Virus record (IMG/VR): IMGVR_UViG_2654587571_000007
Length of the DNA: 19,693 nucleotides
Origin: a virus
Taxonomy: Duplodnaviria; Heunggongvirae; Uroviricota; Caudoviricetes
Reading direction: 5' to 3' (one strand)
The notes under the pieces were generated by a model. That model ran no database searches. It was not told the DNA's origin and saw only the letters and a program-made list of their open reading frames with translations. Positions 627 through 6,968 of the stretch are shown here, piece by piece. The first letter of the stretch is position 1, and every line of letters starts with the position of its first letter. Position numbers and translations under genes: made by a program.

Positions 627-1250
627 TCAGAATTTATAGCCGACACCCACGATGAAACCGTCAGTGCGCCAGTCGCCACTGCCGGAACCTTCATAAGCAA
701 GGTCAATAACCACCGTCTCTACGGGACTGAACTGAATCCCGGCATTCCAGGCCGGCGACAGATGACGCGCAGTATGACCATCACTGGCGGTGGTGGTCTC
801 CTTCACATACCCCGGTTTCACTTCATCACGCCGGTAATCCTGAACACTGTCAGACCAGCGGGTGTACGCCATCCCGGCCATGCCATAGAGACTGACCCGC
901 TCACTGAGCTGCCAGACAGGGCCGGCCATCAGACTGACATAACGACCGCGCAGGCTTTCATAATGGAAGGTATTTTCACCCGTCTTCATCGTGTCACTTT
1001 TCTTCACCGATGCATAACTCAGCGCGACAATGCCGCCCAGGTGATCCGTGAACTCATAACGGTATTTCACATTAATCCCTTTTAAATCACCTGCACGCGC
1101 ACCGGTACCGGACAATGCCGGTACGCCGCCCGGGTGAACCTGAGCATATCCCACGGAAAATGCACCGTGTCCGTTTTCAGCCTGTGCAGGAAAGGCAATT
1201 CCTGCCAGCAGGGTAGTAAACAATAATATCGTTGCGTATAAATGCCGCAT
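627..1250 (-). CDS. lom: Outer membrane protein Lom (Ail/Lom/PagC family beta-barrel), lysogenic-conversion moron
   Basis: ORF 627..1286; I place the start at the internal Met (MRHLYATILLFTTLLAGIAFPAQA, a typical Sec signal peptide). C-terminal ...GSGSGDWRTDGFIVGVGYKF ends in an aromatic residue as in OM beta-barrels and matches lambda Lom from memory. Lies between J and stf as in lambda. Confidence 0.9.
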   Translation of the reverse strand: MRHLYATILLFTTLLAGIAFPAQAENGHGAFSVGYAQVHPGGVPALSGTGARAGDLKGINVKYRYEFTDHLGGIVALSYASVKKSDTMKTGENTFHYESLRGRYVSLMAGPVWQLSERVSLYGMAGMAYTRWSDSVQDYRRDEVKPGYVKETTTASDGHTARHLSPAWNAGIQFSPVETVVIDLAYEGSGSGDWRTDGFIVGVGYKF

Positions 1251-1275
1251 GATTACCTCTTTGTTTTCAGTCAAT

Positions 1276-1299
1276 AAAAAAGGCACCTCCTGAGGTGCC
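1276..1299 (-). terminator. Putative rho-independent terminator between J and lom
   Basis: Minus strand reads GGCACCTC-AG-GAGGTGCC followed by TTTTTT (plus 1282-1299 stem-loop, A-run 1276-1281), 20 nt downstream of the J stop and just upstream of the lom start. Confidence 0.5.
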
Positions 1300-1318: not shown

Positions 1319-4300
1319 TCAGCTGATACTGATCCCTGCCGTGGATTTTTTCATGACCACAACCAGTAAATCACTGATGTACGTTGTCGGCGTCCAGTTG
1401 TTCGCACCGGCCGACGACACATTAAACGTCAGGGTGACATGACCCCGCCCTGCCGGCATATCTATCACCGATGAGAACACCCGGCTGACATCCGTTGCCG
1501 GTTCATGGAAAATCTCAACCCCGTTCTTCAGCACCTGCAGCTTACAGGTGGAATACCAGTACGACTGCTGATTCGGGCTGTTGAAATTCTGGTGTTTCGT
1601 CCCGCGAAACAGCACCGGGGGAATGATAATCTGCCGGTCGAAGCCCTGGTCATCGTAAACTGTGACGGTTACCGTCCCGCTGGCATAACTGTTATTCCGG
1701 GGAAAGGCTTTCCCCACCGTCTTCACCAGGTCGCCTTCAATCTGGTTTGCAGACAGTTTCCCTCTGATGACACAGTTCTCGTTAATGGTGACATTATTGA
1801 GCGTGCCGGTATTCGCGGTAATTGCTCCGCTGATATCCGCGTTCCTGGCTGTCAGCTTCCCTTCCGGCGTCAGGGAAAACGTCGGGGGGTTGCCGGATGA
1901 CGTGATACTCGCCGCAAACAGACGCTTCAGGAACACGTCGTTCATGAACAGCTGATTCCCCTGCGCCACAAATAACGGAGTGCTGTTGCCGCTCTCCGGA
2001 TTTATCATCGCGATACGGTCAGCCAGCAGCAGTATGTTGCTCAGTGGCTGGCCATCAGTATCCTCAATCCCTGCACCAATCCCGGCCACATAGGGAATGC
2101 CGTCTTTCGTTTTTTGAACCTTCAGCATGTACAGCGCAGCCAGGTCATCATTTGTGTCCTTCTGCACGCGCTGTATCTGCTGAATGGTGGCGCTCTGGTC
2201 TTCCAGCGTTTTACTGACCGTCTGTGTGATTTCATTGCGGGTTTCGGTGATGGTGGTCTTCATCTCCGCCATCTCATCCGCAAGCTGGCTGTTGTCTATC
2301 AGCTCCCATAGCCCCTGAGCCAGATGCAGTTTTCCTATTTTTTCCCGGAAAAATTCCAGATACCCTTCACCATCATTGCTGGGCTGCCCGCTGACTTCCA
2401 CAAACGCAGATTTCCCCACCAGGTTGACGCTGCGCACGTAAAACCAGAAATCCTTCCCGGGCTTAATGTGCGGGCCGGATACACTCCACTGACTGCCGGT
2501 CCCCAGATAACGGGCAGAGGTTTCCACCTGAGATGTGTCTGCGATTTTTGCCTCCGAAAACCAGAACTCAAACTGTACCGTCGGGTCATACACCGCAAGA
2601 CGCGGGACCGCCGTTATCTGAAAATACCCCGGCGTCAGTTCAATGGTGGCGGGTTTTGCTGGCGCGTTAATCCGGAAGGTGGTGGTGGCCGGTTCGCCCT
2701 GCTGGCCATAACTGTTAATTGCCCGGACTGTCAGGGTGTATTCCCCGAGCGGCAGACCACTGAAACGATGCTCTGTATCCGCAGTGATGGCGGTGGTCAC
2801 CAGACGGCTGTCTTCTCCGCTTCCGTTGGTCAGGCGCAGACTGAAGCGCACCCCCTTCACCACCCGCGGCGTGTCCCATTTCGCCTGTGCCAGATACTGA
2901 CCGTCAGCCGCGCTCACCTCCACCGTCAGGTGCTGCACAGCCGGCGGGATGACGCTGTTCAGCGAACCGGACAGTGGCTCAAAGCTGGCCCCGTTATCCA
3001 CAATGGCTTCTTTTTCCGGTACGTGCTGCACCGCCGTGATGGCAAAGGTGCCGTCCGTGTTTTCCCGGATGGAGACACAGCGGAACAGGCGACAACGCAG
3101 TGACGGCAGGGAGAGTCCCCATACACCGTATGTCTCCACACCATCAGGCAGGGTGCTGACCTGTATCCGGTCCGGCGCGGGGTGTGCAGTGATGGCCACG
3201 CTCACCGGCTTACCGCTGCCGTTAATCAGGTTCACCGTGGCGGCACCTGTCTCCGGCAGGGTCACCTCACGGTCCAGTGTCAGGGTGCGGCTGGCGGCAT
3301 CGATGGACAGGATACGTCCGCCGGTCATGGTCCCGGCATAGTCGTTATCACAGATTTCAATAATGTCACCGGGTGTGTGACGCAGCCCCTGTGACCCGAG
3401 CGTGAAATCCACCGTCTGCGTTTCCAGCAGTCCGGTCTTTATCACCCACAGCCCGGCACGGTGGGCCTGACCGCGACTGGTGCAACCGAACGCATCCATC
3501 TTCAGCAGGTTGCGCCCGTAGCGCAGTATGGCTTCCGGGTCTTCCACCAGTTCCGTGGAGGTCTGCCAGCCGTTCTGCGGGTCGGTGTAATTCACCTCCA
3601 CCGCCGTGTGACGGTCCTTCAGGGCGCTGAAGCTGTAGCGAAACCCCACGCCGTTATCATCCACCACCACATCGCAGTTGGTGTACGGCCACACCACATC
3701 CGACGGGCGGTCCTGAACGAACGTCAGCGTCTGGCCGTTCCATACCGGCATACAGCGCATCGCCGAGCAGAAATCACTGAGCACATCCCATGCCTTACGC
3801 TGTTGTGACAGGTACGCATTAAAGGTCATCCGCGGCTCTGTGCCCCCGAAACCATCCGGGACCGTCTGGTCGCAGTACTGCCCGATGGCATACAGCGCCC
3901 ACTTGTCAACATCCGCCGCCACCAGACGTTTTCCCATGCCGTAGCGCGGGTGAGTCAGCATGTCCCACAGGCACCAGGCCGGGTTGTTGCTGTATGCCGG
4001 TTTCAGGCTGCCGTCCCAGATGCCGCTGTACGTGCGTTTTTCCGGGTCATAGTTTGACGGCACCTGGATGATGCGACCTCGGATATGGTAGTTCACCGTC
4101 ATCTGCTGACCGCCAAACTGCTCCGCATCCACCTGCAGCCCCACAATCGCCGTGTTCGGGTAGCACTGTTTCACATCGATGATTTCGGTGTATGACGACC
4201 AGAGCGTCTTATTCTGCAGCTGGTCCGAGGTGCTGTCCGCTGTCTCCCGGACCATCCGGATGTTAAAGGGCCGCTCAGGCAGATTCTCCAGAATCACCGA

Positions 4301-4795
4301 CGCCAGGTACTGTGAGGTGGTCTTGCCGTTAATGGTGACATCCTTTTCCGTCACCCAGTTACCGTTACGCTGCAACTGAATCAGCAGTCGGACAGAAGAG
4401 GGATTACGGTCGCCCTTTGAGGTGGTCTCCAACAGTGACTGCACCCCGAAGGTGACCCGCAGGCGGTCAATGTTCGCGGATGTAATGGTGCGCGTTACCG
4501 GCTTTGCCTTCGTCACTTCCACGCCCAGTCCGGTTTCAGCTCCGGAGGACTCAAAGCCTTCCGGTGGTGTCTGCTCCTGCTCCCCGGCGCGCCAGACCGC
4601 GGTCACACCGTGTATCACAGGATTGCCGTCCGTGTCCGTCAGCGGGGTTTTGTTCACCAGGATACTCTGCAGCCCCTTCACCGGGCCTTCTATCGGTCCC
4701 TCACCAATCGCATCAATCACACTCATCATCTGCGTGGATTTGAGATTATCCTTCGCCTCTCGAGGCGTGTGCGCCCTGCCGCCACCTTTGCCCAT
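1319..4795 (-). CDS. J: Tail tip / host specificity protein J (central tail fiber)
   Basis: 1158-aa ORF with RBS GAGAGGAA before the ATG. N-terminus [39 protein letters not shown] and overall length match lambda J (1132 aa) from memory. Follows I as in lambda. The C-terminal ~250 aa differ from lambda J as I recall it. Confidence 0.95.
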
Positions 4796-4815
4796 AATGT
4801 TCCTCTCAATTGGTA

Positions 4816-4928
4816 TTATTAATCGCAGTGATAGGATATTGCACAGCTATTGCGCGATATCATCAGAACGCTGTTTGTTACCCTGTAACCAGCAAGCTCA
4901 GTCTGTTAACGGAATTAATGAGGGTTTT
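4816..4928 (+). promoter_or_regulatory. Putative promoter region and RBS of sodC
   Basis: AT-rich 113-bp stretch upstream of sodC with weak sigma-70-like hexamers (TTGCAC, TATCAT, TAGGAT) but no canonical -35/-10 pair at proper spacing; RBS GAGGG 6-9 nt before the ATG. Exact promoter not determinable by eye. Confidence 0.3.
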
Positions 4929-5456
4929 ATGAAATGTAAAATCATTGCTGCCATTGCCATGCTGACAGCAGCATCATGCGGATACGCAGCAGAACAGGAA
5001 GTCCCAATGAACCTTGTCAGTGCTGACGGAAAAGAAGTCAGCATTGGAAAAATAACCATTCAGGAGACCCCCTACGGTCTGCTGTTCACACCAGCCCTTC
5101 ACTCTCTGTCTGAAGGCATTCATGGTTTTCATGTGCACGAAAAAGGAAATTGCGCCCCGGCACTGAAAGACGGAAAACCGGTCGCAGCATTATCGGCTGG
5201 CGGTCACTTTGACCCGAAAAACACCGGCAAACATCTTGGCCCCTGGTCTCCGGATGGACACCTGGGCGACCTCCCTGCGCTGTTCGTGACGCATGACGGA
5301 AAAGCGAACTACCCGGTCCTGGCCCCGAGACTGAACTCATTAAAAGAGATTAAAGGGCGTTCTCTCATGCTTCATGCTGGCGGTGATAACCATCATGACC
5401 ATCCGGAGCCCCTGGGCGGTGGTGGTGCGAGAATGGCCTGCGGCATCATTCAATAA
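4929..5456 (+). CDS. sodC: Periplasmic Cu,Zn superoxide dismutase (prophage-encoded SodC)
   Basis: Start ATG at 4929 ([20 protein letters not shown] signal peptide), in frame with the 3' part of track ORF 4422..5456. His-rich metal-ligand blocks [48 protein letters not shown] visible in the translation; resembles Salmonella Gifsy-2 SodCI from memory. Opposite strand to all flanking phage genes; visibly more AT-rich than the tail genes. Confidence 0.93.
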
Positions 5457-5463
5457 TCAGTCA

Positions 5464-5490
5464 GGTAAGGGGCGGGCCCCTTACCTTTAT
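5464..5490 (+). terminator. Rho-independent terminator of sodC
   Basis: Perfect 9-bp stem GGTAAGGGG / CCCCTTACC with loop CGGG, followed by TTTAT, starting 8 nt after the sodC stop. On the minus strand it is not followed by a T-run, so late-operon readthrough is not blocked. Confidence 0.65.
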
Positions 5491-5604
5491 TCCTCAGGAC
5501 GATAAATCCTTTCTCCCTGAAAAGAACGGCACATCCTCCCTCTCTGAGTTAATGTTTTTGTCGTGACATAAGAATAATTCCTTACACTCAATCTTCGTAA
5601 CGCT

Positions 5605-5641
5605 CCCGCAGTTCCTGTCCGTGAGCACTGCGGGATTTTTT
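5605..5641 (+). terminator. Second plus-strand hairpin plus T-run (orphan terminator-like element)
   Basis: Stem CCCGCAGT (5605-5612) / ACTGCGGG (5627-5634) with a 14-nt loop, followed by ATTTTTT. No plus-strand ORF lies between it and the sodC terminator. Confidence 0.4.
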
Positions 5642-5646
5642 CGCTT

Positions 5647-6327
5647 TTATGCCTGCCGCCCGATAACCACGACCTTTCCGCCCCCGCCTTCATCACGGGT
5701 ACTGATGTCCTGGGATATACGGCGGGAGCCAACCAGCATTTCCCCGTAAGGCACCGGCATCGGGTTACCCTGGGCAATCATGTTGTCCAGTGACGAAAAA
5801 TACGTGTTCTGTCTGCCGTTATCCGTGCTTTTGTACTCCGGTACTTTAGCCTTCGGGGCCAGCATCTGAGCCACACCACCCAGAATCATGCTGGCCCCCA
5901 GAGAAAACAGCATCGTGGTGGCAGAAAAACCACCGGCTGCCAGGGCTGAACCCCATAACGCCATTGATGCCCCGGCAGTGAAGAAAGAGCCCACGATGGC
6001 TGCCGCCCCCAGCACAATCTGCAGTCCACCCTTTCCGGCCCCGGCCAGTCGCGGCACAATGTGGATGACCGTTCCCTCACCCAGCTGTTCGTGAAGACGG
6101 GCGTACACCGCCTCCGGTGCCGTGTCCTCACCGCGAATACGTATCTGGTACCAGCCTTCGTTCATCTGACGGCGGAATCCCGGCATCTGCATCGACAGGG
6201 CACGGATGGCTTCCGCTGCCGTGTTCACATACAGGCTGAGGCGGCGGCCAAATCGTTGTAAATCCCCGTGAAGGCAGATACGTGCCAGTGGCGGTGACGC
6301 CAGGCTGAATGCGTTCGTCGTTGCCAT
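5647..6327 (-). CDS. I: Tail tip assembly protein I
   Basis: 226-aa ORF; size and sequence (…GGVAQMLAPKAK… hydrophobic Gly/Ala-rich C-terminal half) match lambda gpI (223 aa) from memory. Lies between K and J and overlaps the K 3' end as in lambda. Confidence 0.9.
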   Translation of the reverse strand: MATTNAFSLASPPLARICLHGDLQRFGRRLSLYVNTAAEAIRALSMQMPGFRRQMNEGWYQIRIRGEDTAPEAVYARLHEQLGEGTVIHIVPRLAGAGKGGLQIVLGAAAIVGSFFTAGASMALWGSALAAGGFSATTMLFSLGASMILGGVAQMLAPKAKVPEYKSTDNGRQNTYFSSLDNMIAQGNPMPVPYGEMLVGSRRISQDISTRDEGGGGKVVVIGRQA

Positions 6328-6968
6328 TTTTCGGAATACCTCTCCCGTTTACTCAGTTGTTCAGGCAGATGGTGAAGCAGCTCACCGTTGCCGCAGTATA
6401 TGGCGGCATGATTGGCCACCGATGCGCCAAAGCAGCACAGCAGGATATCGCCAGGCTGTGCGGAAGGCAGGGAAATCCTGTAAAAACCAGTCGCCTCCAT
6501 ATTGTCCAGGTACAGGTTCTGACCGTTGCGCCACCAGTCATCCTCACGCTCAAAATCCGGCATATCAATTCCCGCCAGATGGTAGGCATCCCGGAACAGC
6601 GTGTAACAGTCCGTCACCCCGTGCTCAAAGCGCCGTCCTGTCAGATGTGGCACACAGCGGAATTTATGAATTTCCCCCCGGCAGACCAGCCACCAGGACA
6701 GTGCACTTTTTATCTGCAGCCGCCGGTCGGCCTCGCTCAGCCAGGGCAGACCACCGGGATGACTGTGGACCAGTGCCACAATCTCCCCCTGCATCTCTGC
6801 CCGCAGCCAGTCTTCCGGTGCAATACGAAAATACGCCTCCGGCTCTGCAGAGATATTCACACAAGGGATATACCGCTCCCCCTCCGGCGTTCTCACCACG
6901 AAGCCGCACGACTCCGCAGGCACACACCGCCGGGCATGCGCCAGAATCGCTGATTCTGTCTGTGTCAT
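6225..6968 (-). CDS. K: Tail tip assembly protein K (JAB/MPN metalloprotease-like plus NlpC/P60 domains)
   Basis: 247-aa ORF starting 5 nt after the L stop. JAMM-type motif HSHPGGLPWLSEAD (H-x-H-P-x6-S-x2-D) and NlpC/P60-type Cys (GVTDCYTLF) and His (NHAAIY) visible. The 3' end overlaps I by ~100 nt in another frame, as in lambda. Confidence 0.9.
   Translation of the reverse strand: MTQTESAILAHARRCVPAESCGFVVRTPEGERYIPCVNISAEPEAYFRIAPEDWLRAEMQGEIVALVHSHPGGLPWLSEADRRLQIKSALSWWLVCRGEIHKFRCVPHLTGRRFEHGVTDCYTLFRDAYHLAGIDMPDFEREDDWWRNGQNLYLDNMEATGFYRISLPSAQPGDILLCCFGASVANHAAIYCGNGELLHHLPEQLSKRERYSEKWQRRTHSAWRHRHWHVSAFTGIYNDLAAASACM

Follow-up and report, generated by a model that had tools for sequence, protein, structure and literature searches.

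The spacer between the tail genes I and J of the lambda-like prophage examined here carries, antisense to the late operon, a gene for a Cu,Zn superoxide dismutase (SOD) that is an already characterised and annotated prophage gene and not a new one. The DNA analysed, hereafter the window, is a stretch of 19,693 nucleotides from the tailed-virus (Caudoviricetes) record IMGVR_UViG_2654587571_000007 in IMG/VR, and comprises the late (head and tail) operon of the prophage on the minus strand. We regard it as highly probable that the locus is the known prophage moron sodC-F, in its F1 allele, that is, an autonomously expressed Cu,Zn SOD gene in the I–J spacer of lambda-like Escherichia coli prophages. 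The present analysis itself shows the identity of the gene, its metal ligands and signals, its boundaries and distribution, and that a neighbouring small RNA (sRNA) gene related to PasB has lost a promoter motif. Expression in lysogens, RpoS independence, dimeric state, lipidation and the peroxide phenotype are drawn from the literature, and what we infer concerns the promoter position, the recombination mechanism, the fate of the PasB-like gene and the behaviour in lytic growth.

Positions 4796–5646 are exactly the I–J spacer, 851 bp long, in which sodC occupies the plus strand, divergent from J and convergent with I; the corresponding gap in phage lambda measures 60 bp. A preliminary description of the same DNA, made from the sequence without database searches, had proposed an antisense sodC moron between two genes that are nearly adjacent in lambda, and the coordinates and strands collected in Table 1 bear this out.

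The predicted product of sodC matches the Pfam family Sod_Cu (PF00080) with E=3.9e-32 and 111.9 bits (cutoff 28.9) over profile positions 3–133 of 133, and the NCBIfam SodC equivalog NF007628 with 218.4 bits (cutoff 165). Bacterial SodC structures in the PDB, including Salmonella SodCI and E. coli SodC, are matched without gaps at E=1e-56 to 1e-62. Residues H68, H70, H93, H149, H102, H111, D114, C75, C171 and R168 are all present and fall in invariant columns of an alignment that includes Fels-1 SodCIII, Gifsy-2 SodCI and a divergent E. coli allele, and all of them align without gaps to the solved SodC 1z9n; a further row of the alignment, for E. coli chromosomal SodC, was given no weight. By analogy with SOD1 and SodC, we take H68, H70 and H149 to be the Cu ligands, H93 the bridging histidine, and H102, H111 and D114 the Zn ligands, with C75 and C171 presumably forming the disulfide and R168 serving as the active-site arginine. 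Residues 1–20 are predicted to form an export signal with a hydrophobic core and an AXA-like site, after which the mature part starts with AEQE; the same signal peptide contains a lipobox, A14-A15-S16-C17. The complete SodC with signal peptide and metal ligands announced in the preliminary description is therefore supported by profile matches above the cutoffs and by invariant ligands, and only its length needs correcting, from 176 to 175 aa, since the 176 codons include the stop.

ATG 4929 was taken as the start codon because the Pfam domain, the ribosome-binding site (RBS), the signal peptide, the homologues and the RefSeq annotation all fit it. A naive longest-open-reading-frame call would instead begin at GTG 4422, where the frame is open for a further 507 nt upstream and runs antisense to the 5' end of J; the resulting 344-aa open reading frame (ORF; 4422–5456, plus strand) was rejected as spurious.

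At the level of the allele, the predicted protein is identical at 175 of 175 residues to ECs_1989 of the Sakai prophage Sp10, and codon 112 of the gene encodes Leu (CTG). The published SodC-F1 has in common with it the AASC lipobox, in which Cys17 follows the first 16 residues, the cleavage site of signal peptidase I (SPase I) between residues 20 and 21, the mature length of 155 aa and Leu112, the residue that distinguishes the F1 allele (PMC2569942). These comparisons identify the predicted product as a bacterial periplasmic Cu,Zn SOD of the SodC-F1 allele.

The properties of this enzyme have been described (PMC2569942). O157 lysogens make SodC-F during logarithmic growth, in stationary phase and under anaerobic conditions, as detected with a chromosomally tagged protein, and in intracellular bacteria it is up relative to chromosomal SodC. 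Its expression is not RpoS-dependent, so the dependence that the preliminary description offered for examination has already been reported absent. The enzyme is a dimer whose stability and activity far exceed those of chromosomal SodC, with a specific activity of 19380 U/mg for SodC-F1; it is partly membrane-associated, the features of its export signal having been described and tested; and it contributes to peroxide resistance, mutants being peroxide-sensitive (PMC2569942).

The closest known systems are thus SodC-F1 and SodC-F2 of the O157:H7 lambdoid prophages (D'Orazio et al. 2008, BMC Microbiol 8:166), whose features are shared by the window and from which nothing of substance differs but the backbone. 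Fels-1 sodCIII (STM0924) likewise occupies exactly the interval between the homologues of I and J, on the strand opposite to the late operon, but its protein is only 60% identical and its stop is only 53 bp from the I stop, which leaves no room for a PasB-like gene. Gifsy-2 sodCI (STM1044) also encodes a prophage-borne, dimeric-type SodC antisense to the tail operon, 59% identical to that of the window, but it sits between the L homologue and the lom homologue / M and not between I and J. Gifsy-2 sodCI is an established virulence factor. The assignment of the window gene to a class already known from prophages, as the preliminary description had it, accords with these relatives and with the identity to ECs_1989. 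The E. coli chromosomal SodC (PDB 1ESO) has the same fold and belongs to the same family (E=1.4e-56); unlike SodC-F, with which it shares 61% mature-protein identity, it is monomeric, RpoS-dependent, less stable and fully soluble (D'Orazio et al.; PMC2569942).

The preliminary description had credited sodC with its own RBS, an AT-rich upstream region, a unidirectional terminator and a composition more AT-rich than that of the tail genes, and each of these holds. The sodC coding sequence (CDS) has 52.8% GC, with 50.6% GC at third codon positions (GC3), against 57.8% and 59.6% GC for J and I, respectively, and GC3 values of 63–71% for J, I, K and L. On the plus strand the T1 hairpin (Table 1) runs into a T-run, and on the minus strand none follows it, making T1 one-directional by sequence. 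T1 is conserved in the 79%-identical sodC allele of E. coli cM8a, and terminator-like sites in the region number 6, compared with 1.6 ± 1.3 expected from shuffled sequence. Lambdoid late transcription is Q-antiterminated, and the directionality of T1 is for that reason largely moot.

A relaxed promoter scan gave several weak candidates, among which only an extended -10 element that is conserved in the cM8a allele, there as TGaTATGAT, was retained; it is our candidate for the sodC promoter. A 32-nt block downstream of this element (CTATTGCGCGATATCATCAGAACGCTGTTTGT, ~4847–4878) is fully conserved and may be a regulatory site. Judged as a moron in the sense of Hendrix and Juhala, sodC is an extra gene absent from close relatives, deviates in composition and has its own terminator. 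On the side of the promoter there is no strict consensus, and the evidence consists of the conserved extended -10 candidate and of the published activity of a 299-bp fragment upstream of the sodC ATG, which drives a lacZ fusion (PMC2569942).

Table 1. Features of the I–J spacer and of the surrounding late operon, in window coordinates.
Feature	Position	Strand	Details
sodC upstream region	4796..4928	+	39.8% GC (133 bp)
J RBS	complement of 4801-4808	-	GAGAGGAA; five nt before J ATG
Candidate sodC extended -10	4811-4819	+	TGgTATTAT; relaxed scan; 16 nt from J start codon
sodC Shine-Dalgarno	4920-4924	+	GAGGG; 4 nt before ATG, direct reading
Predicted SodC-F1-type Cu,Zn superoxide dismutase gene (sodC)	4929-5456	+	176 codons including stop; 175 aa
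T1, sodC intrinsic terminator	5463..5492	+	10-bp GC-rich stem, 4-nt loop; hairpin 5463-5486, -17.4 kcal/mol, then TTTATT
Junction segment	5493..5545	+	Site of pasB promoter in relatives; 45-nt gap including the -35; -10 TATAAT changed to TCCTCC
Predicted PasB-family sRNA body (variant)	5563..5641	+	Single-stranded AATCTTCGT motif; ends 6 nt from I stop; converges with I
T2 terminator	stem 5605-5611 / 5628-5634; six-U tract 5636-5641	+	-16.1 kcal/mol
J, tail tip / host-specificity	1319..4795	-	1158 aa; Pfam FNIII-A_GpJ, Ig_J, Phage-tail_3, Ig_GpJ_C
I, tail assembly	5647..6327	-	Pfam Lambda_tail_I; right boundary of spacer
Late operon, gene order		-	terminase, portal, protease C, D, major capsid E, tail tube V, tape measure H, M, L, K, I, J, Lom homologue

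Comparison with relatives that lack sodC shows where the mobile part of the spacer begins and ends. JLK-2012, PhiR5_1, prophage PP6 of the enteropathogenic E. coli (EPEC) strain E2348/69 and the Sakai prophages Sp11, Sp14 and Sp15 all have an I–J spacer of 240 bp, with I and J 94–97% identical to those of the window. When these are aligned to the window, homology spans the J CDS to its ATG, breaks immediately after it and resumes at ~5546 to continue into I. It follows from the two breakpoints that a cassette of ~750 bp has replaced ~140–145 bp of J-proximal spacer and, since homology ends at the J ATG, that the J RBS belongs to each spacer allele. The last ~100 bp (5546–5646) are, by alignment, resident PasB-like sequence outside the sodC cassette. 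The junction comparison across lambdoid prophages called for in the preliminary description thus places the boundaries at the J ATG and at ~5546, and its 851-bp insert stands in part: 851 bp is the length of the I–J spacer, but the cassette is shorter and replaced existing sequence. A pure insertion of 851 bp was accordingly rejected, the right ~100 bp being resident and the sodC-less spacer already measuring 240 bp.

The J-proximal sequence of the sodC-less spacers is absent from the sodC alleles, so that neither state is a simple deletion of the other. In that sequence a hairpin with a T-run lies on the late strand directly upstream of the J RBS (GCAGGCACC..GGTGCCTGT TGTTTTTGTG; 1737–1760 of sodC-less locus L002, minus strand). 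Fels-1 has a comparable late-strand, terminator-like hairpin, read by eye, just upstream of J (~3868–3890 of locus L011), and the sodC allele of the window has none. Such a late-strand hairpin might insulate J–lom from read-through in the lysogen.

The resident sequence to the right of the cassette belongs to a family of Hfq-dependent sRNAs. PasB of EPEC E2348/69 is Hfq-dependent and northern-validated, and was placed at NC_011601.1 1466343–1466261 on the minus strand (Pearl Mizrahi et al. 2021, Table S6); our sources for it were that study and the preprint of Zhu, Shabalina & Storz (2026). In the RefSeq record of E2348/69, PasB is found 6 nt beyond the stop codon of I, upstream of gpJ and on the strand opposite to these two genes. 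Positions 5563–5641 of the window align with positions 8–82 of this sRNA at 59 identical bases out of 71, and share its syntenic place next to the I stop and antisense to the tail genes, its terminator stem and its AATCTTC motif. Compared with PasB, the window gene has a divergent 5' half and lacks the TTCACA-N16-TATAAT promoter. The link was made through the published PasB northern probe, which matches the terminator stem conserved in the window; Rfam, which holds no PasB family, gave no match at its gathering thresholds for the window and two sodC-less loci. PasB-family RNAs have been described as Hfq-dependent and abundant in EPEC and enterohaemorrhagic E. coli (EHEC), and northern blots of E2348/69 PasB and of EcOnc22 show an RNA of ~83–85 nt.

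The body of the window gene differs from the JLK-2012 copy solely in one T of the T-run. Ahead of the body, JLK-2012 has a promoter of the form TTCACA-N16-AATAAT (10/12) and cM8a one of the form TTCACA-N16-TATAAT (11/12); a promoter scan at the PasB-like gene of the window found none. The promoter loss, comprising the 45-nt gap and the altered -10, is identical in Sakai Sp10 and in an Stx2a phage. On these comparisons, 5563–5641 is a predicted gene body of the PasB / EcOnc22 sRNA family in a promoter-less variant, and the gene is probably silent or made only by read-through. A likely history is that sodC with T1 first came to lie upstream of an intact pasB unit, as in cM8a, and that the promoter was lost later in the allele that spread. 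The I–J spacer is thus a slot for cargo exchanged by recombination, in which at least three classes of allele can be told apart: PasB alone, sodC with a promoter-bearing PasB, and sodC with a PasB that lacks its promoter.

The same family appears to have been recorded independently in EHEC. EcOnc22 (~85 nt, destabilised without Hfq), EcOnc23 and EcOnc24 were reported in Sakai prophages Sp15, Sp14 and Sp11, respectively (Tree et al. 2014). In NC_002695.2 all of them fall inside the I–J spacers of these prophages and run antisense to the tail genes. Read literally in this record, the coordinates would put them at the hairpin next to J (+22 to +84 relative to the start of J), a placement that was rejected after calibration with AgvB. 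Rfam locates AgvB at 1941920–1941981 and the published interval is 1941783–1941835, a shift of ~+137 to +146; the genome record has meanwhile gained 128 bp. We therefore read the published coordinates as those of an older Sakai version, shifted by ~+128 to +146, with which the Hfq peaks coincide with the PasB homologue; the calibration point, at 1.94 Mb, is away from the three EcOnc loci. EcOnc22/23/24 and PasB very likely form a single family. In Table S6 of Pearl Mizrahi et al. no EHEC homologue is noted under PasB. In the literature searched, sodC-F and PasB/EcOnc22 are treated separately with no link drawn between them, and neither Pearl Mizrahi et al. nor the preprint of Zhu, Shabalina & Storz mentions sodC.

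Within E. coli the sodC cassette is widespread. Positions 4796–5550 are found at 724 places in 547 of 5426 complete genomes (~10%), with 542 of the 549 cassette records at an identity of at least 99%; the EDL933 cassette is 99.9% identical. Junctions between I and J of this phage family number ~5800, spread over 1890 genomes, so that roughly one in 8 holds sodC. Among phage records, sodC is present in 2 of the 149 that match, and 9 of 50,697 encode a SodC relative. Many E. coli chromosomes carry the entire I–sodC–J stretch at 100% identity, and RefSeq annotates sodC between the tail assembly protein and gpJ in chromosomes as well as in two Stx2a-converting phages. The antisense placement, singled out in the preliminary description as a point of interest, is consequently not special to this phage, being found again in Fels-1 and, in an identical spacer, in Sp10 and an Stx2a phage.

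The pattern of identity around the spacer points to exchange. The window, Sakai Sp10 and the Stx2a phage EH2201 share the 851-bp unit at 100% identity, and in the same comparison identity is 94% for I, 97% for the 5' part of J, 92–93% for L and 64–67% for the 3' half of J. An invariant spacer in diverged backbones is what would be expected of a module exchanged via homologous recombination in conserved flanks. E. coli cM8a carries its 79%-identical sodC allele at the same I–J junction, with the same left boundary at the J ATG, in a backbone 95–97% identical to that of the window. This allele, together with Fels-1 sodCIII at the same junction, indicates that the occupation of the site by sodC is old. 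We conclude that the I–J sodC is an old, widely exchanged alternative spacer allele rather than a recent private insertion. GTDB species representatives were also scanned with SodC: the 80 closest relatives (in Serratia, Pseudomonas and others) reach at most 69% identity and no homologue of I, J, K or L flanks any of them, so that the scan identified neither a donor nor a further phage context.

These observations suggest how the locus would work. In a lysogen, where the late operon is silent, sodC would have a promoter of its own, from which transcription would lead away from J and head-on towards I and would stop at T1; its expression would be independent of phage late transcription because the gene is antisense to the late operon. 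SodC would then be exported and its signal either cut by SPase I after residue 20 or lipidated at Cys17, to give a stable dimeric enzyme, periplasmic or membrane-anchored, that would remove superoxide and raise the peroxide resistance of the lysogen. On induction, Q-modified polymerase arriving from I would cross the spacer, as neither T1 nor T2 is predicted to terminate in that direction for want of a T-run, and J would be translated from its own RBS. Under these conditions the polymerases would be expected to collide head-on, and the late transcript to be fully complementary to the sodC and PasB-like transcripts. The 851-bp unit would move between backbones through homologous recombination in the J 5' end on one side and in PasB and the I 3' end on the other, the cassette having displaced the J-proximal half of a PasB-encoding spacer.

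Some points weigh against this account. A strict sigma-70 scan of 4600–5900 returned 0 promoter-like sites, and the position of the sodC promoter is itself a prediction. The link to SodC-F1 runs through Sakai ECs_1989 and the described features, while D'Orazio et al. worked with EDL933. In addition, a weaker element, TGaGTTAAT, remains at ~5546–5554 (by eye) ahead of the PasB-like body, whose predicted silence rests on loss of the promoter motif. The lack of a strict consensus promoter would also suit a decayed or non-expressed pseudogene carried passively, a reading that we consider scarcely credible. The ORF is full-length, its catalytic residues are intact, it scores above the equivalog cutoff and it is identical in hundreds of genomes. 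Moreover, the published detection of SodC-F in O157 lysogens effectively refutes decay, and the region is 100% identical to that of Sp10, with no promoter mutation seen.

Another possibility is that sodC and the PasB-like gene form one unit, in which transcripts reading through T1 to T2 would be processed to free a 3' untranslated region (3'UTR)-derived, Hfq-binding sRNA of ~85 nt, co-regulated with sodC. 3'UTR-derived sRNAs are an established class, the two genes lie on the same strand ~100 nt apart, and the PasB-like body and terminator have stayed nearly identical to the promoter-bearing JLK-2012 copy although their own promoter is missing; the Hfq dependence and abundance of the family in EPEC and EHEC point the same way. 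We nevertheless hold such an arrangement to be unlikely. T1 looks efficient, with its GC-rich stem, its predicted stability and a UUUAUU tract, and the near-identity of the sRNA body may just reflect the recent spread of the cassette. In cM8a, T1 and an intact pasB promoter coexist, which argues for an ancestral design of two separate units. Among the Hfq peaks of Tree et al. none lies 3' of ECs1989 in Sp10, and no EcOnc22 homologue is noted there, although their filter, which required a distance of >100 bp from coding sequence, may have hidden such a peak.

It is also conceivable that I–sodC–J is the ancestral state and that the 240-bp sodC-less spacers arose by deletion. In favour of such a history, sodC is found antisense between I and J both in Fels-1 (60% protein identity) and in cM8a, where the allele is 79% identical and shares the left boundary at the J ATG, which makes the occupation of the site old. 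However, the sodC-less spacers hold their own ~140–145 bp of J-proximal sequence with its late-strand hairpin, which has no counterpart in the sodC alleles, and sodC is the minority state among both the junctions and the matching phage records counted above. The cassette is furthermore 100% identical across backbones that differ by 3–8%, its gene deviates in composition, and the lambda gap measures 60 bp. We judge an origin by deletion to be improbable, even more so than processing of an sRNA from the sodC transcript. The reading of the locus as the autonomously expressed moron sodC-F1, exchanged as an alternative spacer allele, is therefore the one we favour.

Prophage SodC enzymes are accessory fitness or virulence factors, best established for Salmonella SodCI. 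The identification of the window gene as sodC-F1 gives the prophage a correct annotation and brings no new biology; the added value lies in the true boundaries of the module and in a link among the sodC-F, EcOnc22/23/24 and PasB literatures, which do not cross-reference one another. Were the sRNA co-expressed with sodC, this would be a small addition to the regulation of prophage cargo in EHEC and EPEC, and a single accessory unit inside the tail operon would combine an sRNA regulator of the prophage with a virulence-associated antioxidant moron.

Other features of the backbone were noted alongside. The longest ORF of I (226 aa) overlaps the end of K (6225–6968, minus strand) by 103 nt, as in lambda; in several relatives RefSeq gives I as a shorter protein of 193 aa (579–582 bp), and the start annotation differs among records. 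In the cM8a prophage (4769–5691 of locus L012), a gene with a P22AR C-terminal domain, antirepressor-like, is annotated upstream of K at the position expected for L. Downstream of J, the window encodes an outer-membrane protein of the Ail/Lom family (627–1286, minus strand; Pfam Ail_Lom E=6e-51), a second cargo gene that, unlike sodC, lies on the late-operon strand and is 46% identical to Lom of Sp10. The receptor-binding 3' half of J (1319–3000, minus strand) is 64–67% identical to J of Sakai Sp10 and of the Stx2a phage EH2201, next to a spacer that is 100% identical in all three; this divergence is typical tail-fibre mosaicism.

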